Assembly: GCA_964622665.1 (NCBI GenBank)
Contig: CAZUUO010000001.1
Span: forward strand, 6,666-70,665
Direction of reading: 5' to 3'
DNA: 64,000 bases
DNA from: an uncultured Gammaproteobacteria bacterium
GTDB lineage: Bacteria; Patescibacteriota; Patescibacteriia; Magasanikbacterales; GCA-002688135
Below, in pieces: positions 8,146 through 54,839 of the stretch; position 1 is the first letter of the stretch, and the number at the start of each line of letters is the position of its first letter. The translations under genes were made by a program, and so were the position numbers. Under the pieces are notes generated by a model that was given only the letters and a program-made list of their open reading frames with translations, did no database searches and had not been told where the DNA came from.

Positions 8146-9969
8146 TTACCTATTGAGCACATCACATAATTTACCTTCCCCCACCAGAAATAACTCATCA
8201 CGAGCACGAGTTAATGCCACATAGAGCAAATCTTGGTTGATTTTTTTCTTTTGTATGCGGTGTTCTTCAGATAATGATGCCGACACCTCAAACATATCGC
8301 GAGTAATTCCCACCACACAGACGATATCAAACTCAACACCCTGCGATTCTACCATCGTCATGACATGTACATTCTCCTGTTCTGCAAATATTTTTTTATA
8401 TTCGGTAAGATCGTTTTGTTCTTTTGCAATGATTGCAATCTGTTGTCCAGCGTGATCACTCGCAATCTTTTCTACTATTTTTTGTTGGTCCGCAACAGAA
8501 CCTACCACCTCCATTACCGGATTTCCCGTTTTTACACCGTGTGGAATACTCACCTCATATCCCAATGATTGAATATATTCCAAAATTTCTTTGGTATTGC
8601 GATATACTTTTTGCAATACTACCTGTCGATCCTCAGGAATTATTTCATTAATTTGTTCCCAATCACGCAACGTGCCGATATAAATTTGTTGCGCTTTGTC
8701 CCCCACATACACCATGGAATTGTTTTCTTTGTGTATACAGTTTCGGATGAGTTGTAATTGTGCGGGAAGATAATTTTGAAATTCATCAACGAGAATCAAC
8801 GAATACTCAATAGGAAATTTTTTCATCTTTCGTTCAAACTCTCCATTTTTCTTGGGCACGATATATGATTCGGTGCGATGTAATTTTCCAAATCGCGCTT
8901 TCAATGCAGACAACAACAAGGTGACATCATATCTGTCGAGGATTTTTTGTTTTTTCTGTTCCTTCCATACGCGTAACAACTCAGGCGCAAAATATTCTGT
9001 GTAGATTTTTTCAAGGGTGTTCCATGGATTTACTCCAATCACTACTTCCACGCCCTTTTCCACCACTTCCAATTTTTTCCACGCATAACTATCATGCAAA
9101 GTTCCCGCACCATAACTATTCACCACAGAAACATCATCACCAAATTCCAAAATTTCTTTTGCCCAATCACCAAACGTACTAATCGTCACATCGGTAATTC
9201 CTAACTCTGGCAACACATGAGAAAAATATGCTTTCGTACCAAGATCTTGTACAAGTACCAACACCGAACTTCCTCTAAATTTTTCTGCCGTGTCAGGAGA
9301 TTGCGCGAGATATGCTATGCGGTGGAGCGCCAGCGTTGTCTTTCCTGAACCCGCAGGACCCGTAATAACAAACGGTCCTTTGTACGAAACCCGTACCACT
9401 TGATCTTGTGCTTTTTCCATTTGTGCAACAATTTCAGGTAACACAAATCCTTGTTTTCTTGTGGTAAAATGTTCCTGATGTATAAGTTCTCGGGGTGTAT
9501 CAGTATTTTCGGTTGCAAAAAATACCAAGTTACCTTCCACGATCATGTACTGATCTTTACGCAACAAGGTTCCTCGTTGTATAGTTCCATCATTTTTTTG
9601 GTATGAAAATTTTCCCGGACTTTCAAACCGAATTGAAGCCGCCGGTGCCACCCACCAATATATTGATTTCTCGGTAAACGGAAATTTGGCAAAGTACATT
9701 GTCTCGAGTCCCTTACCTTCCAACTCCACATCACAGCGCACAAAATAAGGTGCAGGCAACAATGCCGCCAATTCATCAAGACGTTTTTGGTTATAGATTG
9801 TGAGCGTCCGTTGAACCATTTGATCTGCAAAAGCCAACTTCCACATTTCATGACTTCCTGATGCTAGTTTTTTCTCTGTAGCAACCAATGCTTCACCCAG
9901 TGCCACCGTCGTGTCAGCAAGATGTGTTTGTACTTCTTCCAACAATTGTTTTTTATGTGAGGCATCCAT
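8146..9969 (-). CDS. UvrD/Rep-family (HelD/helicase IV-like) DNA helicase
   Basis: An N-terminal domain of about 200 aa followed by Walker A 'GPAGSGKTT'. A later 'ILVDEFQN' (helicase motif II) and UvrD-C-like C-terminus ('LLYVALTRARDELFLV'). Confidence 0.65.
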   Translation of the reverse strand: MDASHKKQLLEEVQTHLADTTVALGEALVATEKKLASGSHEMWKLAFADQMVQRTLTIYNQKRLDELAALLPAPYFVRCDVELEGKGLETMYFAKFPFTEKSIYWWVAPAASIRFESPGKFSYQKNDGTIQRGTLLRKDQYMIVEGNLVFFATENTDTPRELIHQEHFTTRKQGFVLPEIVAQMEKAQDQVVRVSYKGPFVITGPAGSGKTTLALHRIAYLAQSPDTAEKFRGSSVLVLVQDLGTKAYFSHVLPELGITDVTISTFGDWAKEILEFGDDVSVVNSYGAGTLHDSYAWKKLEVVEKGVEVVIGVNPWNTLEKIYTEYFAPELLRVWKEQKKQKILDRYDVTLLLSALKARFGKLHRTESYIVPKKNGEFERKMKKFPIEYSLILVDEFQNYLPAQLQLIRNCIHKENNSMVYVGDKAQQIYIGTLRDWEQINEIIPEDRQVVLQKVYRNTKEILEYIQSLGYEVSIPHGVKTGNPVMEVVGSVADQQKIVEKIASDHAGQQIAIIAKEQNDLTEYKKIFAEQENVHVMTMVESQGVEFDIVCVVGITRDMFEVSASLSEEHRIQKKKINQDLLYVALTRARDELFLVGEGKLCDVLNR

Positions 9970-10571: not shown

Positions 10572-10757
10572 TTATTTCTTACCACGAAATAATTTTTTTA
10601 TAAGTGCGATAATCCCGTATCCCATCGTTGCAATCGTTACCATAATTCCAATCCATACCATCAGTAATGCAGGTAGCATCACCAAGTGCGTAGGAATATA
10701 CAGCGGTGAAGATTCCTCAATTAACAAATCGGCCATTTTAATGATAGCTAGCCCCAC
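10572..10757 (-). CDS. small hydrophobic membrane protein (61 aa)
   Basis: Two predicted TM helices. It sits distal to the copper operon. Confidence 0.3.
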   Translation of the reverse strand: MGLAIIKMADLLIEESSPLYIPTHLVMLPALLMVWIGIMVTIATMGYGIIALIKKLFRGKK

Positions 10758-16343: not shown

Positions 16344-16404
16344 CCGATAAACGACCCACGATGGGCCGTTTTTTTATTATTTAATTACAGTATCATTATG
16401 CAAC

Positions 16405-16460
16405 AAAAAACCGCCACACGCGTGACGGTTTTTCATTATGTTGCATTTTCTATTTACGAA
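16405..16460. repeat. about 55-nt repeated intergenic element, copy A (A-run, CGCCAC-N4-GTGACG hairpin, T-run, then TTATGYTGCATTTTCTATTT)
   Basis: Near-identical copies lie at 17195-17250 and, hairpin half only, at 18172-18209. All are immediately 3' of minus-strand transcription units (glsB-like, PPase, tRNA-Asn). Confidence 0.45.
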
Positions 16461-16698
16461 TCATTTTTACCACACTTATACATATCACCGCGCCAAATAA
16501 CGCCACCAAGAAACTGTAGATATTGAATCCGGTGACAGGGTACTTCCCAATCATACTCATAATCCAACCACCGATAGCAGCCCCAACAATACCTACCACG
16601 ATGTTGAGTACCATTCCTTGTGATTTATCCGTATTCATCACCAACGACGCAACCCAACCAACAATTCCCCCAAATATAACCCAAAGAAAAAATCCCAT
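16450..16698 (-). CDS. GlsB/YeaQ/YmgE-family transglycosylase-associated small membrane protein
   Basis: 82 aa with the characteristic 'GGIVGWVASLVM' glycine-zipper TM pattern. Confidence 0.7.
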   Translation of the reverse strand: MGFFLWVIFGGIVGWVASLVMNTDKSQGMVLNIVVGIVGAAIGGWIMSMIGKYPVTGFNIYSFLVALFGAVICISVVKMIRK

Positions 16699-16749
16699 AT
16701 TATTACCCGTTATAATATCTAATTATCCACAAAAACTTTTCCAAATTTC

Positions 16750-17058
16750 CTATGATATTTTTTCTTTCATAGTAACCCATCGAGCTTTTAAGGTTTCAAT
16801 GATGTCATCTTTGTAATCTTGCAGATCTTCTTTTCCCTCAAGATATTCATCTACTAACCGGTCAATTGTTTGGTTATAAGATTCACGCGTCACTTCAGCC
16901 ATTTCACCCAATTTTTCTTCCACAATACTGTATATGTGCGCAATATCTCTTTCTGCCGACTTTTGTAACGAGCGTCCTTTTCGTGCTTTCACAAAAAGTA
17001 ATGCAGCACCTACTGCGATAGCCCCCCAGGCTATTGTTTTTCCGAATCCTTTTTTCAT
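16750..17058 (-). CDS. hypothetical membrane-anchored protein (YtxH-like)
   Basis: N-terminal TM ('TIAWGAIAVGAALLFV') then a charged helical domain. The start is probably the ATG at 17058 ('MKKGFGK'), not the track start at 17085. Confidence 0.35.
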   Translation of the reverse strand: MKKGFGKTIAWGAIAVGAALLFVKARKGRSLQKSAERDIAHIYSIVEEKLGEMAEVTRESYNQTIDRLVDEYLEGKEDLQDYKDDIIETLKARWVTMKEKIS

Positions 17059-17194
17059 AGTGGTGCAGGGTTGAGAGACGCACAAAAGTATGTCTTACAC
17101 TATCAATGGTAGTCCTTACTGAGCATTTGTCAAAGATTCTGACGCGTATTTTTTTACTAGTTCCCGTAATGTTTGTATTTGCTGGGTATAAACA

Positions 17195-17250
17195 AAAAAT
17201 CGCCACTTTCGTGACGAGTTTTTATTATGCTGCATTTTCTATTTGCCAGT
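17195..17250. repeat. repeated intergenic element, copy B
   Basis: aacaaaaaatcgccactttcgtgacgagtttttattatgctgcattttctatttgcc matches copy A at more than 85% identity. Confidence 0.45.
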
Positions 17251-17278
17251 ATGTCTGCCTTTACGTGAAATGACGTTT

Positions 17279-17629
17279 TTAATTACGTACGACCCTACCG
17301 GAAAAAAACTGTTCCTGAAAATAAGTCGCAGCAATAATTTGCTCATCGGTTAGCAATGGATCATCAGTAACTACCAATTTGTCATCATCGTCGTCATCAC
17401 GATGTATAACAGCAATACAAAACCCAAAAAATTCAGACATCGGCTCAGTTGGACCAATCACATATGCATCAATAGGCTCACCATCAGGCGCAACCGTATT
17501 TGGAATATAGCCATAATTGATAGGATAGATATATCCATATTTTGGATGTTGTGACCCAAGAGGTCGTTCAATTACCACGTGTACTTTTTGACCAATGTAA
17601 CGATGTGAGTAGTCAGCACTTGATTCCAT
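17279..17629 (-). CDS. short family-I inorganic pyrophosphatase-like protein (116 aa)
   Basis: Matches the PPase core 'YPxNYGxIPxT...DGDPxDxxV' ('YPINYGYIPNTVAPDGEPIDAYVIG') and an Asp-rich segment. It appears to lack about 50 N-terminal residues of canonical PPases. Confidence 0.55.
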   Translation of the reverse strand: MESSADYSHRYIGQKVHVVIERPLGSQHPKYGYIYPINYGYIPNTVAPDGEPIDAYVIGPTEPMSEFFGFCIAVIHRDDDDDDKLVVTDDPLLTDEQIIAATYFQEQFFSGRVVRN

Positions 17630-17701
17630 AGTAGATACAGTATTTCAAAATAAATATCATTACGCAATAAAAAAAGTGAGCCCATGGCTCACACTCCTAT
17701 A

Positions 17702-18100
17702 TTACAAATACTCGTCTATGAATTTCCTGATCGCAATTCGCCCACCGTCTGTCAAATAATATGAAAGAACGTGTTGTATTGGAACCCAATCAAATCCCTG
17801 ACCTTCTCCCAGTACAAAATCGCTCTTTTCCTGATTATTTTTTGTTAAAAAAATATGATAGTCTGGTTTTTCAGGTCGTTTGATTGCAAATAAGAACTCA
17901 ACATGTGAAGCAGACACCCTTACACCCAATTCTTCGTAAAGCTCACGAATCAGTGCTTCTATTGGTTCCTCACCTTCCTCATTATGACCACCAAACAATC
18001 CCCATTTCCCATTGTACGGTGCGTGTTCATCACGATGCTGCATCAGTACTGATTTTCTTTCCTCACTATAGATAATCGCGGAAACAATAAAATTGTTCAT
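17702..18100 (-). CDS. NUDIX hydrolase
   Basis: Nudix box 'GGHNEEGEEPIEALIRELYEELGV' (Gx5Ex7REUxEExGU). Confidence 0.75.
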   Translation of the reverse strand: MNNFIVSAIIYSEERKSVLMQHRDEHAPYNGKWGLFGGHNEEGEEPIEALIRELYEELGVRVSASHVEFLFAIKRPEKPDYHIFLTKNNQEKSDFVLGEGQGFDWVPIQHVLSYYLTDGGRIAIRKFIDEYL

Positions 18101-18171
18101 GCATTCCTCCTAATTCATAGGAAAGCATATTGGTAAACTATCACACCCCTCACAAATACTCAATAATCAGC

Positions 18172-18209
18172 GACAAAAACAAAAAATCGCCACTTTCGTG
18201 ACGACTTTT
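18172..18209. repeat. repeated intergenic element, copy C (hairpin/terminator half only), abutting the 3' end of tRNA-Asn
   Basis: aaaaaatcgccactttcgtgacgacttttt is identical to the copy B hairpin. The tRNA follows directly. Confidence 0.4.
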
Positions 18210-18284
18210 TGGCTCTGAGGGTGGGGATCGAACCCACGACCAATACGTTAACAGCGTACTGCTCTGCCGCTGAGCTACCTCAGA
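18210..18284 (-). tRNA. tRNA-Asn (anticodon GUU)
   Basis: The reverse complement folds as a 75-nt cloverleaf: acceptor TCTGAGG/CCTCAGA, D-arm GCTC-AGCGGCA-GAGC, anticodon stem-loop GTACG-CTGTTAA-CGTAT, T-arm GTGGG-TTCGATC-CCCAC, discriminator G and an encoded CCA. Confidence 0.85.
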
Positions 18285-18392
18285 ATATCTCCCTTTTGGG
18301 GATGTCCCTATAATACAAAGTAGCCGTTTCTCTGTCAACTTACATTTCCACAACATTATTCCCCTTTAAAAATGCAAATTCCAATTGTTTTC

Positions 18393-19235
18393 CTACTTCT
18401 CTTGCTCTTCTTGTTGTTCCATCACCCCGGTATTGTCTGTAATGACCTCTAGAATCCTTTCTTCGTCTGGATGTTCACCTTCCAATAAACTTGGATCAAA
18501 AAATATGGCATGTCCATAGATTACCTTAAACAACTCACCTCTTTCCTTACTCGCCACATCTTTTTCATCAAAGAGATTTCGAATCAATTGTTTATTTGTT
18601 TTATATGCTAATGAATTTTGATATTCACGTTGTCTCTCTGTGATTTTTTCATTTGCCTCATGGTTTCCCAGATACATCTCATACACAGACCTATCCCTGG
18701 TAATGGAACTGCTTTTCTCAACAATTGCTCCTTCAAAACCTCGAAGATCCTCCTCCATTTTTTTAATTTTTTCGCGGTTTAGTAATCCCGGAATTCCCCA
18801 AAAACCCTTCAATACCTTTATTTGTTTTTTTAGCTCGATAACTTTTTCATTCCAATGTTTCACATCTGCCTTTTCTCTTTCATGTCTACGAATTAAATCA
18901 GTATTGACATATTCCCATTGCCCCTTAGGTAACTCAAGCTCCTCTTGAGCGCGTACTTCATTAATTTGCGCCTGTAGTCTTTCAATTTTCTCGTCCAAAC
19001 GTTGTAATTTTTTTATATCATCAAACGCCATTTTTTTCTTTAATTCCCTAATTTTTTCGTATACTTCAAAAGAACTCCCTCCGAGTCTTTCCTTATGTTT
19101 CGCGATCCAATCATGGACACTTTCAGGATCCCACAAATATATTATTTCTTCCACATCAGATTCAGTAAACCCTTCTTTTTGTGGAAGCATTACATTATCT
19201 TTTATTACACCAACCTTCTCTCCTCTTTTGTCCAT
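18393..19235 (-). CDS. hypothetical coiled-coil protein (280 aa); third gene of the Pif1-associated module
   Basis: Highly charged K/E-rich heptad-like sequence in the central region with no catalytic motif seen. It lies 42 nt downstream of the Pif1-like gene. Confidence 0.4.
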   Translation of the reverse strand: MDKRGEKVGVIKDNVMLPQKEGFTESDVEEIIYLWDPESVHDWIAKHKERLGGSSFEVYEKIRELKKKMAFDDIKKLQRLDEKIERLQAQINEVRAQEELELPKGQWEYVNTDLIRRHEREKADVKHWNEKVIELKKQIKVLKGFWGIPGLLNREKIKKMEEDLRGFEGAIVEKSSSITRDRSVYEMYLGNHEANEKITERQREYQNSLAYKTNKQLIRNLFDEKDVASKERGELFKVIYGHAIFFDPSLLEGEHPDEERILEVITDNTGVMEQQEEQEK

Positions 19236-19277
19236 ATTTTTTGTATTGCAGATATACTTGGCATTAGTATACCATAT

Positions 19278-20552
19278 CTACACTGACTCGAGGAAAACGC
19301 GCACACGGTCATCCACCATTACGTCACGGGGGCGCAATGGGCGTGCCAAGGTAATGCCATGTAATGAAGTGGCGCGTGACAGAGCAACATAGGTTTGGCC
19401 GTTTGCAAAGGCACCACTACCTAAATCGATGTGTAATTTATCAAAGGTTTTACCTTGTGATTTATGAATCGTTACAGCGTAGGCCAACTTCAAGGGAAGT
19501 TGTACAAATGTTCCCCTTTGTTTTTGATCAAGAGCATTTTTTTCTTCATCAAAAACGGTTTCATACATCGTCCATGTATGTGGCATGACTTCGATTGTTT
19601 TCCCATCGTCGGTTTGCACCATCACTCGTCTATCAATAATATCTTTCACAGACCCTAACGTTCCGTTCACGTACAATCCATTTTGCGTGTCATTTGCGAC
19701 AAACATTACCCGCGCCCCAACTTTTAACACGAGGTCAGTTTCGGTTGGTGCATTTTTATCATCAAACTTTCCCGTTGTTTTGGAAGGAAATCGAACAGCC
19801 TTAGCACCTAATTCATTGAGACGTTGTTCATTAATTGTTTTAGCGGTGTCATTTCTCCCCGTTAAAATTAAGGTGTCACGATCGGTCATGGAAAACACTC
19901 GTTCATGCAACATTTCAAAATGATATTGTTCAATACTTTTTTCTCGAATCGCGTGGAGTAATTCCAAAAAATCTGCATCTTTTTGGCGAAATACATGTTC
20001 CAATTCAATGCGATGTAACAAATTAAATTCGCGCAATCGTTTAATTACTTGAGCATCAAAAAAATATTCCGATGCGTATAATTTTTTAAACGCTTCCATC
20101 TCATCAAATTTAATAATCGGTGGGAGTTGGTATAAATCTCCAAACATAAGCACTTGCACGCCCCCAAATGGTCGTTCATCTTTTCGTACCGCACGCAAAA
20201 ATACATCGATGCAATCGAGTAAATCAGCCCGCACCATGGATATTTCATCAATGATGAGGGTGTGCAATTCTTTAAATAGTTTTTTCTTTTGAGAAAAATT
20301 TGCCTCTTTTCGGGCACGAGGCACACTGACACTGGGCGCAAAACCAAAACATGAGTGAATTGTTTCACCCCCCACATGCAACGCCGCAACACCCGTTGGT
20401 GCTACGGTAATGCAATTTTTAGTTGTATTGAGTCGGTACTGTGTTAATAGCGTGCTTTTCCCGGTTCCTGCTTTCCCGTGAACAAATACACATCCACTAT
20501 TTTCCTGTAGAAAATCCAGTGCTTCCTGCCATGTCGCGTTTTTTCCATCCAT
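19278..20552 (-). CDS. Pif1/RecD-like SF1B DNA helicase
   Basis: Walker A 'GKAGTGKST', motif Ia 'VAPTGVAA', Walker B 'LIIDEISMV' and a C-terminal Pif1-type region 'AVTIHKSQGKTFD'. The start overlaps the upstream ORF by 56 nt. Confidence 0.7.
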   Translation of the reverse strand: MDGKNATWQEALDFLQENSGCVFVHGKAGTGKSTLLTQYRLNTTKNCITVAPTGVAALHVGGETIHSCFGFAPSVSVPRARKEANFSQKKKLFKELHTLIIDEISMVRADLLDCIDVFLRAVRKDERPFGGVQVLMFGDLYQLPPIIKFDEMEAFKKLYASEYFFDAQVIKRLREFNLLHRIELEHVFRQKDADFLELLHAIREKSIEQYHFEMLHERVFSMTDRDTLILTGRNDTAKTINEQRLNELGAKAVRFPSKTTGKFDDKNAPTETDLVLKVGARVMFVANDTQNGLYVNGTLGSVKDIIDRRVMVQTDDGKTIEVMPHTWTMYETVFDEEKNALDQKQRGTFVQLPLKLAYAVTIHKSQGKTFDKLHIDLGSGAFANGQTYVALSRATSLHGITLARPLRPRDVMVDDRVRVFLESV

Positions 20553-21951
20553 AGTCTACATCGCGTAAATATCTTCTAAAGAGATAATCCCCTACTTCCA
20601 CTCTATTGTCAAAGTGTGGAGAATTAGGTAATTGATCCCACATTTTTTCAATCTCACGATACAATACATTTACATCTCGTTCTTCACCATTAAAAATAAA
20701 TGGATAGATTACTGATTTTGATTCTACCGGTGTGAGGTACAAATTATTTAGTAAACATTGGCGAAGTAATATTTTGTATTCTTTATCCGTAAGGGTATAC
20801 GGATCATGGGTCTCATCAAATATTCCCCCTTTTTTCCTATAGTACTCTCGTGTACCTTGTACTATCTCATTTCGCAAAATTGCTTCTTTCTCTAAAATTT
20901 CTTTCTCTATGACTCTATCTATATTTTGAACACTATCCCTACTTACTTCATCAAGTATTTCTTTAGCCAGATCCCCATTTACCTCATTGATTTTACCGCC
21001 AGGGACTTCAATAAAATAAAATACCTGCATTCTTTTGTTACCCGCCTTTATTGTTTTCTTCATTTTCTCCCGAAATTCATTAAAGACCTTTAACCCATTC
21101 ATCATCTCAAATACTCCATTGAGATTTTTTTTCTCATCAAGAGAAACTTCTCCGCGCAATATACGGAGTGAGTCCTTGGTTTTATACTGGAGAATTTCAC
21201 CATGGCGTCCATATTCATCAATTCCCTGCAATGCGTCTTCTGTTGGTTTTGAAGTGCGCGGTTTTAACTGTAATTTCTCGGCAACTTGATGCGCACCAAT
21301 ATGTGACAACACACCAGACTTTAAACCGCTATATTCTTTTTTATACCCCGAACTTTCAGCAATTTCTTCCAAAATACTCCAAAATACTTTTAAAAACTCT
21401 TTGTCATCTCTATTTGCCTGAACAAAATTAATAAGAGTATTTGTGTACTCTACAATTCCCACAATGTCACTTTGTACTTCCGCCAATTTAGTTCTTGTTC
21501 TATTTTCATTTAAGTAAATTTGTGATTCTAGAGTTGATTTTAAACCGAATAATAATTCAATCCCTTGTATTTGATCAGGAAATTTTGCAATAAACTGTTC
21601 TTTGAGTTTTTTATTTTCCTCATCACTTAAACCAAACCTGACATGCTCTAAATATCTTTCTTGTAAATCAGTTTCTGGTGACTCCTCTAATCCATTAAGA
21701 ATTTTATTTCTACTCAATATATCATCAAAATTTGCATCAAAACTTTTCTTCCACCAATCACGAAGAATATGCTCAACTTCGGATCGTTCATAGGGTGTTA
21801 ACCAATTCCCCTCTACATAATCGCGTATATATTCACGATCTTCTTCTGAAAAGTCACGAATGGAAGCTAACACTACTTTTTTCAATAGTGTTTCTGGTGA
21901 TCGTAATTCTTTTTTTTCTTGTTTTGGATGGACAAAATCTCTAAATTCCAT
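20497..21951 (-). CDS. hypothetical protein (484 aa); first gene of the Pif1-associated module
   Basis: Long, charged, soluble protein with no motif I recognise. Its stop lies inside the Pif1 start region, consistent with translational coupling. Confidence 0.4.
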   Translation of the reverse strand: MEFRDFVHPKQEKKELRSPETLLKKVVLASIRDFSEEDREYIRDYVEGNWLTPYERSEVEHILRDWWKKSFDANFDDILSRNKILNGLEESPETDLQERYLEHVRFGLSDEENKKLKEQFIAKFPDQIQGIELLFGLKSTLESQIYLNENRTRTKLAEVQSDIVGIVEYTNTLINFVQANRDDKEFLKVFWSILEEIAESSGYKKEYSGLKSGVLSHIGAHQVAEKLQLKPRTSKPTEDALQGIDEYGRHGEILQYKTKDSLRILRGEVSLDEKKNLNGVFEMMNGLKVFNEFREKMKKTIKAGNKRMQVFYFIEVPGGKINEVNGDLAKEILDEVSRDSVQNIDRVIEKEILEKEAILRNEIVQGTREYYRKKGGIFDETHDPYTLTDKEYKILLRQCLLNNLYLTPVESKSVIYPFIFNGEERDVNVLYREIEKMWDQLPNSPHFDNRVEVGDYLFRRYLRDVDYGWKKRDMAGSTGFSTGK

Positions 21952-22037
21952 AGTACACCCAGTATACCATTTTTAACGGTTTCACCTTGGGGAAAAGTAA
22001 TAAAAAATCTCAGTAGTAACACTGAGATTTCAAGCTG

Positions 22038-23366
22038 CTAGTAATCTTTCAATTTTTCAATTCCCTTCATTTTCTGAATCTTTTCAAGAGCTTTTGCTTC
22101 AATCTGACGAATACGTTCTCGGGTCACATTAAATTCTTTACCCACTTCTTCGAGCGTATGCGCCACTCCATCCACTAACCCAAACCGCATTTCCAAAATC
22201 TTTTGTTCACGAGGGGTTAAATCTTTAATGATGTTCTGAACATAATCACGTAACAATTCCAATGCCGCTGCGCGATCAGGCGTGATATTTTTAACGTCCT
22301 TAATGAAGTCTTGTAATGATGAGTCCTCTTCGTCATCACCCACGCTCGTTTCCAATGAAACGGTTTCTTGTGAGATTTTAATGATGTGACGAACTTTCTC
22401 CACCTCTTCATTCATTTCAGCGGCAATTTCTTCAGCAGTGGGTTCACGTCCTAAATCTTGAATAAGCTGACGTTCAATTTGTTGAAATTTATTAATCGTT
22501 TCCACCATGTGCACAGGAATACGAATGGTGCGGGATTGATCAGCGAGTGCACGAGTAATTGCTTGGCGAATCCACCATGTTGCGTAGGTTGAAAATTTAA
22601 AACCTTTGCGATATTCAAATTTTTTCACTGCACGAAACAACCCAATGTTTCCTTCTTGAATTAAATCGAGCAATGTCAATTGTTTTCCTACAAATTTCTT
22701 TGCAATAGAAACCACCAAACGCAAGTTTGCTTCAATCAATTTTCGCTCAGCATTACGTTCACCCCGTTCTTTACCTTTTGCCAAATTAACTTCTTCTTCA
22801 CCGTTCAATAACGGGATTTTACCAATCTCACGCAAATACATTTGAATAGAGTCGGCCGTCAATTCAGGAATTTCAAAACTCTTATTAGTTTCAACGTTCA
22901 ATGAAGTTAAAATTTTATTATCTCGTTCTCGATTTCCCAATAATGATTCACGACCTTCAATGAGTGCGAGGCCGTGTTTCTCTAAATCTTGTAAAAACTT
23001 TTCATAGTCTTCCACGTAATCTTCTACTTCGGGAAAGGTAAACAAGACTTCTTGTTCGGTAACAAACCCGCGTTTACGTGCTTTTTCAATCAGTGCGTTG
23101 AGGGCAGCTTCTTGAGGTGGTAATCCTTTGGGAAATACTCGATCAAAGTAGGGTGAGCCGTGTTTTTTTGCAGGAAGTTTTTTTACTACTTTTTTAGGTG
23201 CCACCTTTACTTCTTTTTTTGCTACAACCTTAAGTGGTGTTACTTTTGTAGTAACTTTTTTAACTGGCACCACCTTTTTTACTACTTTTGCAACCACCTT
23301 CTTAATTGCTTTTTTGATGGGAGCTTTTGTAGGTTTTTTAATTTGTTTTTTTGACTTGTTTTGCAT
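22038..23366 (-). CDS. rpoD: primary RNA polymerase sigma factor RpoD with a Lys/Val/Pro-rich N-terminal extension
   Basis: Region 2.4/-10 recognition ('[16 protein letters not shown]'), region 3, region 4.2 ('[23 protein letters not shown]'), and an about 65-aa KKxxKK-repeat N-terminus. Confidence 0.9.
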
Positions 23367-23419: not shown

Positions 23420-25189
23420 TCAGAGTGTATCATTGAGTTTTTGATAATATTCAAGTAATTGAGCCGCTTTTTCACGGTCTCCCTGCGCCTCAGCAAGTCG
23501 AAGTTGCTGTTCTATATGCGCTTTTTTGGCTTGCAAAAACAATTGTTTGCAGCGTGCAGTAAGGCGCTCATACTCTTGAAGCTTTTCTGATTGTGGCAGG
23601 GTACCATAGAGGTGGTCTGCCAAAAGCATGAGTATGTGGTGTGGCTCTTCTGCTTCACTTTTTTGTGTAGTCTCAGTGTACCCGTTTTTAAGGGTCGCGT
23701 AAAGTGGACGGTAGTTTTCAGGAAAAACCAGGTCAGTGACATCCAAAAAGTCTTTCATTGGTTTTTGGAGCATAATATGAAGCGCCAACAATCTCACAAA
23801 TGGTGAGGTAACCACTTTTTCTTCACTTGTTACTTGTTTTTTTGGCGCAATTGCTCCTCGTTGCGGAATAATTGCTTTTTTACTTTTTACGGCCTGTAAT
23901 TCTTGTTCTAATGTTTCCAAACGCACCCCCACCTTTTGTGATAACGTTTGCATCCAAGCCTCACGTTCAATATTAGAAGGAATCGCTTGCAAGTATGGTA
24001 ACACCGCACTAACAATTGCTTGTTTTCCTTTTGGATCCTCGATGTTATTTTGAGCAATTGCATTATGAATAACAAACGTAATAAACGGCACTGCTTGTGC
24101 AATGGCATTATTCCATGCGTCTTTATTTTTTCTAATTATCTCATCAGCATCTTTTCCAAGATTTGCATCAGGCATAATTACCTTCGTATCAAATCCTAAC
24201 GATAACGCCATCATAATTCCTCGTAGTGCCGCATTTTTTCCCGCACCATCTTGATCAAATGCAAACAACAACGTACCCGCATGATGTTCATCTTTTTGTG
24301 TATACCGACGAATGAGACGTAACTGTTCATCAGTCAACGCCGTCCCCGACGATGCAACGGTATGTTCAAATCCAAATTGATGTGAGGTTATTACATCCAT
24401 TTGTCCTTCAACAATAATACACGTACGCGTTTTGCGCATCGTATGTTTAGCAACATGTAACCCATATAACAGCGCGCTTTTATCAAATACTGCTGTTTGA
24501 GGTGTATTCACATACTTTCCCTGATTTTCTTTTTCTTCCAACAACCGACCAGTAAATCCAACAACTGCACCATGATGATCAAAAATTGGAAACATTACTC
24601 TATCACGAAATCTATCATAAAATGTCCCGCGATCACTTTTTCCCACAAGTCCCGCTGAAACTAAATCGTCAACGGACACTCCCCGCTTCATACAAAAACT
24701 AAACAGTGCATTAAAACTATCGGGAGCATACCCCACATGCCACTCTCGCACTGTTTTTTCATCAAGCCCTCGACGAGCCACATAGTCTCGCGCTTTCTGT
24801 GCTACCTCATGCTGTTGCAACACCGCTTCAAAAAATTGTGTAGCTAAATGCAGTGCATCTTTACTTCTATTTTTTTCTGATGCTTGATATTCGACATCAC
24901 GACGATTGGGCAGCACCACACCAGCACGTTGTGCTAAAATTTTTAAACTTTCAACAAATGATAACCCTTCAGATTTTTGTAAAAAAGTAAAAATATCTCC
25001 TCCTTCATTACAACCAAAACAATGCCACGATTGTCGTTCTCGTGACACCATAAATGATGGCGACTTTTCATTGTGGAAGGGGCATCGCGCTTTAAAATTT
25101 GTACCGCTGCGCGTTAACGTTATATATTCCCCCACAAAATCCACAATATCCACCTTATCTTTAATTTGTTGAATAGGGGTATTGTCCAT
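23420..25189 (-). CDS. dnaG: DNA primase DnaG
   Basis: Zinc-binding '[11 protein letters not shown]...WHCFGC' and a TOPRIM region ('IIVEGQMDV', '[12 protein letters not shown]'). It lies immediately upstream of rpoD in the classic dnaG-rpoD arrangement. Confidence 0.9.
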
Positions 25190-54442: not shown

Positions 54443-54839
54443 AAACCGTTGTGGGGATGAAGGGAATCGATTGGGTCGAATTCGTGCCATGCATGTCGCA
54501 GGTGCTCATACTTGCGTTATCACTATGAGCAAAAACAAATGTCAACGTTTCAAACGTACGCGCAGCACTTGCAAAAGTGTTCGCTATGACACCTGTAGCA
54601 GCTTAATTGCAGCTACCATCGTCTCTTTCTCGCCAAGGAGCAAGAGTAACGGTGTAATACAATCTTGGATTCTTACAAAGAACTCACGACACTTTGTAAT
54701 GAATACATGCGTCGTGTAGAATGTTTCGTATTTCGTAACTTGTTTTAAGCGAAACATCGACAACCTACAAGTTACTACACACGTAGAGTGGTAACGACAC
54801 TACGTCTCAAGACGCGGGTTCAACTCCCGCCATCTCCAA
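54443..54839 (+). ncRNA. ssrA: tmRNA (ssrA); predicted tag reading frame ...AAL AKV FAM TPV AA* ending at TAA about 54625-54627
   Basis: It lies immediately downstream of smpB. The 5' GGGGATG pairs with the 3' CATCTCC, including a G3:U70 Ala-identity pair. A tRNA-like T-arm 'GCGGGTTCAACTCCCGC' is present. The internal ORF ends in 'PVAA' then TAA. CCA is not encoded. Confidence 0.75.

Follow-up and report, generated by a model that had tools for sequence, protein, structure and literature searches.

A Pif1-family helicase gene overlapping a hyperdivergent gene of a Patescibacteria-restricted family

Genes and signals between rpoD and tRNA-Asn

The window analyzed here, a stretch of 64,000 nucleotides, contains three open reading frames on the minus strand between rpoD and a tRNA-Asn gene, which we refer to as X, pif1 and CC (Table 1). 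The three frames, the overlap between the first two, the gap before the third and the adjacent tRNA gene were all found exactly as an earlier note on this DNA had claimed. Open reading frames of such lengths that also have homologs do not arise by chance. Extended -10-like boxes such as the one preceding X are common upstream of genes in this genome and Shine-Dalgarno sequences are rare; the lack of the latter before pif1 is uninformative, as most genes here also lack one. The hairpin that follows the rpoD stop codon suggests that X and pif1 form a transcription unit apart from dnaG-rpoD.

Table 1. Features of the locus, with positions in the window and residue numbers of the X protein
Feature	Position	Strand	Remarks
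gene X	20497-21951	minus	484 aa, ORF call
pif1	19278-20552	minus	424 aa, ORF call
CC	18393-19235	minus	280 aa, E/K-rich, ORF call
rpoD	22038-23366	same as X	upstream of X
dnaG	23420-25189	same as X	upstream of rpoD
tRNA-Asn(GTT)	18210-18284	minus	
tRNA-Asn promoter-like site	18310-18338		
tRNA-Asn terminator hairpin	18180-18211		
Terminator-like hairpin	22004-22031	minus	directly 3' of rpoD stop
Extended -10-like box TGGTATACT	21961-21969	minus	10-18 nt 5' of X ATG
X/pif1 overlap, dual coding	20497-20552	minus	56 nt, pif1 in +1 frame relative to X
pif1-CC intergenic gap	19236-19277		42 nt
Hyperdivergent allelic cassette (X body)	20600-21985	minus	51-70% nt identity to close relative L001
Constant C-terminal handle of X	20527-20613	minus	residues ~447-475, FDN..VGDYLFRRYLRDVDYGWKKRDMA
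Promoter-like TTGACA-17-GATTAT	20584-20612	minus	inside X 3' end, ~30 nt 5' of pif1 ATG; consensus match only
A6 run (TGG AAA AAA CGC)	20539-20544	minus	inside X/pif1 overlap
X helical N-domain			residues 19-226, AF2 model
X alpha/beta core	20923-21261	minus	residues 231-343, AF2 model
X helical C-extension			residues 344-462, AF2 model
X disordered tail			residues 465-484, AF2 model

All relatives recovered in the analysis of related genomes share the gene order dnaG-rpoD-X-pif1-tRNA-Asn. All six related loci, with four X alleles among them, retain the X-pif1 pair and an identical 56-nt overlap. When metagenome contigs were scanned for the DNA of this invariant junction, only the JGI contig already known was matched. 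Conservation of the neighborhood, a point raised in the earlier note, was confirmed for X and pif1 but not for CC. The latter, an orphan specific to the strain, occupies a variable slot between pif1 and tRNA-Asn. The close relatives L001 and L027 lack it, and in L026 its position is occupied by an unrelated 330-aa membrane gene. No homolog of CC was found outside its own 90% cluster, and no family match in Pfam, NCBIfam, PADLOC or PHROG. Assignment of CC to Wadjet JetA (DUF3375) was rejected, as the match scored 18.1 bits against a cutoff of 28.6 and covered 46 residues only, with no jet genes nearby. Only CC and the cassettes 3' of tRNA-Asn are polymorphic among the relatives, the region around the tRNA being variable. 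The proposed three-gene module could not be upheld; instead of an inserted three-gene island, the region is a conserved chromosomal neighborhood in a narrow lineage of Patescibacteria.

The 424-aa protein matched PF05970 (PIF1) in Pfam with 107.5 bits (cutoff 25.9, E 1e-30) and phrog_325, 'Dda-like helicase', in PHROGs (E 4.7e-75). Its translation contains Walker A (G26KAGTGKS), LIIDEISM (DEIS), GDLYQLPP, ...RPFGGVQVLMFGDLYQLPP, TIHKSQG and YVALSRA; the naming of these SF1 motifs, and of the Pif1 signature located between motifs II and III, follows established knowledge. With Walker A and B, the SF1 motifs and the signature present, the protein is by its sequence an intact Pif1-family SF1B helicase, in agreement with the type assigned earlier. 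Comparison with L001 gave a dN/dS of 0.014, indicating strong purifying selection. Helicases of this type occur throughout Patescibacteria (more than 8000 Pif1 matches); the size and N-terminus of pif1 agree with thousands of these homologs at ~50% identity, and it aligns from residue ~1 with 430-aa stand-alone homologs. Elsewhere in Patescibacteria pif1 genes stand alone and their neighbors assort independently, and no X-like partner was seen at the other Patescibacteria pif1 loci inspected.

Divergence of X between constant flanks

The nucleotide identity profile of the window against L001 showed sharp edges at ~21985 and ~20600, which enclose the X body; identity in the flanks was 86-95%. 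The breakpoints are fixed: in an independent pair, L003 and L026, identity broke at the same place, with pif1 94.6% and the X body 40-71% identical in nucleotides. Between the window and L001, dS was 0.33-0.59 and dN 0.005-0.034 in the flanks; in the X body dS ranged from about 1.3 (1.26) to saturated with dN of 0.38, and in the last 36 codons of X dS was 0.29. X was the only such outlier over about 12 kb of aligned sequence. Overall, at least four allele classes with 40-52% amino acid identity were found in genomes whose flanks are 83-95% identical.

The X alleles align over their full length with no frameshifts and a dN/dS of at most 0.2, indicating that all of them are functional genes. Synonymous sites are saturated along the entire X body, and on this ground both in-place positive selection and DGR-type hypermutation were discarded as sources of the divergence. 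In a GC comparison of the kind suggested earlier, X also has the lowest GC (0.342) and GC3 (0.258) of 16 genes. Deep alleles between conserved flanks are a signature typical of conflict or specificity genes, and an arms-race or specificity role is hinted at by the presence of such divergent versions in relatives that are otherwise nearly identical.

At the 3' end of X a different pattern was observed. The four alleles share an identical or almost identical C-terminal handle, and the 43 nt before the pif1 ATG carry seven synonymous changes and one conservative change in the X frame. In the overlap, neither frame shows any change over the first 21 nt following the ATG region; further on, only the pif1 frame is constrained and the X tail is unconstrained. 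The A6 run is invariant in all loci; dual coding explains this, since a change at any position would be non-synonymous in one frame or the other. Also invariant in all loci are both hexamers of the promoter-like TTGACA-17-GATTAT. A conserved overlap of the X stop with the pif1 start, as in translationally coupled pairs, was seen in six loci and is consistent with coupling, which the earlier note had proposed; a possible internal promoter exists.

Family and predicted structure of X

X is a long-form member of an uncharacterized, Patescibacteria-restricted family with 222 cluster representatives. Profile searches, proposed in the earlier note for the 484-aa and 280-aa proteins, were run and no family was found for either; the description of the former as uncharacterized stands, as neither X nor any of the 41 aligned family members gave a consistent match in Pfam, NCBIfam, PADLOC or PHROG. 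A match to 'Replication initiator protein A' (Pfam, E 0.035) occurred in only one of the 41 members and was rejected as noise. Sequence searches of the PDB gave no match with the full-family profile and none at E ≤10 with a core-only profile. Structure prediction, likewise proposed, yielded a confident AF2 model (pLDDT 88, pTM 0.74), and fold searches with it revealed no structural neighbor. An earlier AF2 run from three sequences (pLDDT 60) was too poor for use.

The C-terminal extension of X (residues 340-484, 145 aa) is present only in the pif1-adjacent subfamily. The alpha/beta core contains a family-invariant cluster, P236, (E238), D239, D245 and Q255-x-K257: P236, D239, D245 and Q255 are found in 41/41 members and K257 in 38/41. 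In the model a short strand follows D245 and the next strand carries Q255-x-K257, giving a short strand-hairpin-strand. In motif and predicted topology only, this D-x9-Q-x-K hairpin is compatible with a PD-(D/E)xK-type site; fold searches did not confirm it, and by profile no Pfam or NCBIfam nuclease family was matched among the 41 members.

In the wider X family none of 18 loci adjoined Pif1 and no conserved neighbor genes were found. The earlier note had itself named independently assorting neighbors of the helicase as an outcome that would refute its proposal; what was seen elsewhere in Patescibacteria and in the wider X family partly corresponds to this. In other lineages members of the family are conserved like housekeeping genes and sometimes adjoin nfo, a dNMP nucleotidase gene or dnaB. 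Domain fusions in long family members were uninformative, one match being a probable gene-call artifact with a pilin motif, and an extra 358-aa gene in L001 was rejected as an X paralog.

Interpretation and comparison with known systems

The reading that we prefer, tentatively and with limited confidence, is that X consists of a variable head and a constant handle and is partnered with a constant Pif1 motor. The anatomy, synteny, allele divergence, constant handle, dual coding and family membership are observed; docking of X on Pif1, catalysis by X and a conflict-related role are inferred. X behaves like an allelic cassette that homologous recombination swaps between constant ends: on one side the intergenic region next to rpoD with the first X codons, on the other the last ~100 nt of X with pif1. 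The constant element is pif1, a predicted Pif1-type 5'-3' DNA helicase. The head, comprising the helical domain and the alpha/beta core with D239/D245/Q255-x-K257, possibly carries a metal-dependent phosphodiesterase or nuclease site and would choose the nucleic-acid or protein target of the pair. The handle, apparently held by protein-level selection, would tie X to Pif1 via co-expression and probably physical docking. The long-lived allelic diversity may then reflect frequency-dependent selection, as in genes of restriction specificity and immunity. Should the pairing prove real, a core-type Pif1 helicase would be given changeable specificity by an exchangeable partner protein, and a Patescibacteria-restricted family with neither library model nor structural neighbor would gain its first functional context. 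Even with no known function, the locus is a clean testable case of long-lived allelic polymorphism in ultra-small-genome bacteria, whose defense and conflict genes are poorly known.

It is possible, although on balance we doubt it, that there is no functional pairing and that X, an accessory gene in its own right, happens to precede a core pif1; the overlap would be overprinting in a genome that is compact. In that case the 3' end of X would be constant because the promoter, 5' UTR and start of pif1 lie in it and because allele swaps would have to resolve in that DNA. The promoter-like element with its invariant hexamers, the unconstrained distal X tail, the stand-alone pif1 genes of CPR bacteria and a wider X family that is never near Pif1 all agree with this explanation, as does the position of the locus among other variable slots, which implies that local recombination is frequent. 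However, seven of the eight substitutions before the pif1 ATG are synonymous for X, which argues for constraint on the protein and not only on the DNA; the C-terminal extension is confined to the pif1-adjacent subfamily; and the overlap is unchanged across alleles whose divergence is older than that of the flanks. If the pairing is not real, what remains is an ordinary Pif1 gene with lineage-specific hypothetical genes on either side.

Rather unlikely, in our view, is a role of X and Pif1 in ordinary replication or repair (flap, G-quadruplex or R-loop processing, Dna2-like), with the allelic divergence as a by-product of recombination. The pair directly follows dnaG and rpoD, genes of macromolecular synthesis on the same strand, but the hairpin after rpoD splits the transcription units. 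The very strong purifying selection on pif1, the housekeeping-like behavior of the wider X family and the absence of a defense context would all fit. Yet housekeeping partners of a constant enzyme are not expected as four alleles with 40-52% identity and saturated dS, and the X family is sporadic, its 222 representatives standing against more than 8000 Pif1 matches.

A narrower version of the preferred partnership, about which we are more doubtful still, would make X and Pif1 an undescribed two-component conflict (immunity/restriction-like) system, in which a novel-fold, nuclease-like specificity subunit with several ancient alleles docks through its handle and an otherwise ordinary Pif1 is redirected against foreign DNA. 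The earlier note had suggested an undescribed defense or conflict system; the conflict-type divergence of X speaks for it, but no defense genes near the locus and no defense-library matches (PADLOC) were found, and neither tblastn of X and CC against phages nor an IMG/VR scan for the X family revealed phage relatives. In the literature, no defense system combining Pif1 with an unknown partner was found, Pif1 being named only with WYL domains.

We regard as very improbable a recoding fusion, in which a +1 frameshift or transcriptional loss of one A at the A6 run would give an ~890-aa X(1-471)-Pif1 protein beside the separate proteins. The helicase does lie in the +1 frame, the invariant run is inside the overlap and no stop separates it from the helicase frame; long Pif1/RecD-like proteins with ~500-aa N-terminal regions also exist in profile libraries (the helicase occupies 480-888 of 986 in phrog_325 and 500-836 of 900 in PDC-S53). 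However, dual coding fully accounts for the invariance, six A residues make a short run for slippage, pif1 starts at an ATG of its own and shows the stand-alone alignment described above, X is dissimilar to the N-terminal parts of phrog_325 and PDC-S53, and a fused ORF was present in no locus. Finally, a three-gene defense island integrated at tRNA-Asn, as the earlier note had it, is hardly credible and a tRNA-linked island was rejected: the variable surroundings of the tRNA and the low GC of X would suit it, but all three genes are located 5' of the tRNA, no integrase among the neighbors and no att-like repeat around the trio were found, CC is missing or replaced in relatives, all of which have X-pif1, and the helicase is a lineage-wide gene.

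Among known systems, bacterial Pif1 SF1B helicases (~430 aa when stand-alone; ~510 aa with a C-terminal WYL domain in Bacteroides and Thermotoga) share the PIF1 domain, motifs and size of the protein described here, which differs in that its coding sequence begins 56 nt within a preceding gene with a co-conserved constant C-terminus. In PADLOC searches none of Gabija, Hachiman, Zorya and Druantia fitted, as had been supposed. Hachiman (HamA-HamB) and Gabija (GajA-GajB) resemble the X-pif1 pair in having a poorly conserved, fast-evolving partner with a possible PD-(D/E)xK-like site and an adjoining helicase; their helicases are island genes, whereas the one here is core-like and lineage-wide. 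HamB is an SF2 (DExH) helicase and HamA is DUF1837, unlike the SF1B Pif1/RecD-like helicase and its partner; no HamA match was obtained for X or 41 family members (Pfam/PADLOC) and no HamB match (PADLOC). GajB is UvrD-like (SF1A) and GajA an OLD-family ATPase-Toprim nuclease; in PADLOC there was no GajA match, and GajB scored 12 bits (E 0.016), no stretch passing. Dna2, AddAB and Nhi likewise combine a D..D..(E/Q)xK-type site, possible in X, with an SF1 motor that works on DNA ends or flaps. They are single polypeptides or obligate heterodimers with a recognizable RecB/Cas4-type nuclease, whereas two ORFs are present here; no sequence or fold similarity of X to RecB/Cas4-type nuclease domains was detected, and the Nhi model matched the helicase only in the P-loop region (E 0.0011).

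In evolutionary pattern a parallel can be drawn with the target-recognition domains of hsdS. In type I restriction-modification systems hsdS genes occur as deep alleles at a fixed locus, swapped via conserved flanks beside conserved enzymatic subunits, and the X locus shows a similar pattern. X differs in having no HsdS homology and no methyltransferase or restriction subunit nearby, its conserved neighbor being Pif1. Extreme local variation in a CPR gene has also been described for a hypervariable gene of Gracilibacteria (BD1-5), the function of which is not known and for which a pressure to diversify was proposed (PMC6851277). That gene varies in 9-mer (PTD) tandem repeats (PMC6851277), whereas X is free of repeats and varies by replacement of whole alleles.

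Locus organization in the window and its relatives

The three open reading frames that the earlier note had described beside tRNA-Asn are present as claimed, and their coordinates match. X, the gene for a 484-aa product, overlaps the helicase gene pif1 by 56 nt, the helicase frame being +1 relative to X, and 42 nt separate the helicase stop from the start of CC, which encodes an E/K-rich orphan. Both rpoD and dnaG are located upstream of X on the same strand, and a hairpin is present 3′ of rpoD.

Coordinates of the X-pif1 locus and adjacent features in the window
Feature	Position	Strand	Description
X	20497-21951	minus	484 aa ORF
pif1 helicase	19278-20552	minus	424 aa ORF
CC	18393-19235	minus	280 aa ORF
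tRNA-Asn(GTT)	18210-18284	minus	
TGGTATACT -10-like box	21961-21969		just upstream of X

Most genes of the window lack a Shine-Dalgarno sequence, and in many of them a -10 box of the TGGTATACT or TATAAT-like type lies only ~7-18 nt before the ATG (e.g. the box listed for X and another at 19262-19270). This spacing suggests that mRNAs in this genome may be leaderless or have very short leaders. A tmRNA gene with the tag peptide AKTNVNVSNVRAALAKVFAMTPVAA was found at 54453-54838.

Close relatives were located using the few X homologs and the 90%-identity cluster of the helicase. In one related locus, L001, the rpoD, pif1 and copper cluster sequences are 87-95% identical to the window at the nucleotide level; the gene order is rpoD-X-pif1-tRNA-Asn-CsoR-DUF305-CopA and CC is missing. 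It is likewise missing from L027, and in L026 its slot is filled by a gene on the opposite strand that encodes an unrelated multi-pass membrane protein of 330 aa. CC corresponds to an indel of ~890 nt without flanking repeats; among 5.8 billion proteins no homolog was found outside its own 90% cluster, and it has no phage match. X, pif1 and CC are placed 5′ of tRNA-Asn, with no integrase among the neighbouring genes. The three genes form neither a unit nor an insertion: the distribution of CC contradicts the proposed three-gene module, while the position of the genes and the lack of an integrase leave insertion at the tRNA, and a tRNA-inserted defence island of three genes, unsupported.

The interval from the pif1 stop to the tRNA-Asn promoter (window 18353-19277; L026 2440-3432) is a second variable slot. 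It contains the orphan in the window and the membrane protein in L026, and measures only ~36 nt in both L001 and L027. A terminator hairpin directly 3′ of tRNA-Asn (18177-18210) has copies at 17190-17223 (97%) and 16401-16434 (76%). These copies (window 16401-18211) bracket small gene cassettes encoding, in order, NUDIX and pyrophosphatase-like proteins, a 111-aa protein and an 82-aa Transgly_assoc protein, and a 288-aa lipoprotein-like product. The ~2.8-kb block is missing from L001, and L027 keeps the pyrophosphatase-like cassette only. No integrase was found at these cassettes; the arrangement looks like serial cassette insertion with a duplicated, putatively att-like terminator 3′ of tRNA-Asn. 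L001 also has an extra ~1.25 kb (8317-9570) in place of 34 nt at window 10578-10611. This segment encodes a 358-aa gene product that has no Pfam match and is not a member of the X family.

Divergence of X alleles and the constant end

Identity between the window and L001 was computed per 100 nt. It was 86-95% in rpoD and pif1 and 51-70% in the X body, the transitions at ~21985 and ~20600 being abrupt; the final 100 nt of X were again 92% identical. Nei-Gojobori analysis of the same pair gave dS of 0.33-0.59 and dN of 0.005-0.034 for the flanks of X, dS from 1.26 to saturated and dN of 0.38 for its body, and dS of 0.29 for its last 36 codons. Because synonymous sites are also saturated, the X alleles are of far greater age than the genome around them, and this saturation indicates that they were replaced by recombination and did not evolve fast in place. 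Four allele classes were distinguished (the window/L027 type, that of L026, and those of the homologs P0002 and P0003), with mutual identity of 40-52%. In an independent pair, L003 and L026, pif1 is 94.6% identical in nucleotide sequence and the X body 40-71%, and the right-hand breakpoint is shared with the first pair. The GC content of X (0.342) and its GC3 (0.258) are the lowest among 16 genes examined. The wider X family is not hypervariable: amino acid identity is 95% between loci L011 and L013 and 77% between L018 and L020, near the flank values.

Every X allele terminates in FDN..VGDYLFRRYLRDVDYGWKKRDMA. The 43 nt that precede the pif1 ATG contain 8 variable sites, of which one changes Y to F and 7 are synonymous for X, a codon pattern that shows protein-level constraint on this end. 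The following 21 nt do not vary, and any substitution there would alter the protein encoded in one frame or the other. In the distal overlap, most changes leave the pif1 product unaltered and replace X residues; the extreme X tail is therefore unconstrained read-on.

The Pif1 helicase and the X family

The helicase belongs to the Pif1 family of SF1B (Pfam PIF1, 107.5 bits at a cutoff of 25.9; phrog_325, 4.7e-75), and the complete set of SF1 motifs can be read in its translation. At least 8000 homolog candidates were scored, all with E <=1e-30. The best are from Patescibacteria, with 45-52% identity and end-to-end query coverage. Two sizes occur among them: proteins of ~430 aa consist of the core alone, as in the window, and those of ~510 aa often bear PF13280 (WYL). 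In published work, WYL domains in Pif1 proteins are tied to ssDNA or ligand sensing. The helicase gene of the window is of an ordinary kind, found throughout the lineage, with dN/dS of 0.014 relative to L001; the neighbourhoods examined around its Patescibacteria homologs differ among themselves and include no X-like gene.

X and CC had been noted as lacking a recognisable motif, and indeed neither has a match in Pfam, NCBIfam, PADLOC or PHROGs. Word-indexed search returned only three X homologs (99, 52 and 41% identity). Exhaustive profile search gave a family of 222 cluster representatives, 35 of them below 1e-30; most members are stand-alone proteins of 270-390 aa aligning to X residues ~10-340, and residues 340-484 are found in the X subfamily only. 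The 18 genomic loci retrieved are almost all from Patescibacteria, and the relatives of the helicase and of the X family together point to a Patescibacteria source for the window. The family, which is undescribed, was not found in viral contigs or phage genomes, and none of the four libraries contains a model for it. In a Sungbacteria locus (L024, 5773-8245) the family appears split across two genes: a 308-aa gene aligns only with the C-terminal two-thirds of the profile, and a 456-aa gene two positions downstream bears the N-terminal WW..(K/R)(Y/F)G motif region.

An AlphaFold model of X, built from a 41-sequence alignment, was confident (pLDDT 88.3, pTM 0.74) and predicts a helical N-domain, an alpha/beta core (residues 231-343), a helical C-extension and a disordered tail. 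Within the core P236, D239, D245 and Q255 are invariant in 41/41 members and K257 is conserved in 38/41, and the D-x9-Q-x-K spacing maps to consecutive predicted strands. On motif and topology only, this cluster is compatible with a putative PD-(D/E)xK-type site. Profile searches gave no support for nuclease membership of the core. Two polar residues conserved elsewhere in the family, H235 and D322, are replaced in the X subfamily.

Possible roles of X and Pif1

The best single explanation, which we hold tentatively, is that X and Pif1 are functionally paired, with a role in specificity or conflict; all evidence for the pairing is drawn from about six contigs of a single lineage. A constant Pif1 motor would act with an X partner whose head varies and whose handle (residues ~447-475) is constant, and X would be swapped as a cassette. 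It is possible, and nearly as likely, that X works as an accessory gene on its own, its 3′ end being kept for the sake of pif1. A promoter-like TTGACA-17-GATTAT (20584-20612), both hexamers of which are invariant, lies within the constant end, and among the 18 wider-family loci there is neither a Pif1 within 6 kb (0/18) nor a conserved neighbour; the protein-level constraint on the same end speaks against this reading. A housekeeping pairing of X and Pif1 in replication or repair is a less likely possibility. A +1 shift at an invariant A6 run in the constant end would fuse X and Pif1, but we give this little weight because dual coding accounts for the invariance.

Defence-library scans excluded the known helicase-containing defence systems as families, in agreement with the earlier observation that the trio matches none of Gabija, Hachiman, Zorya and Druantia.
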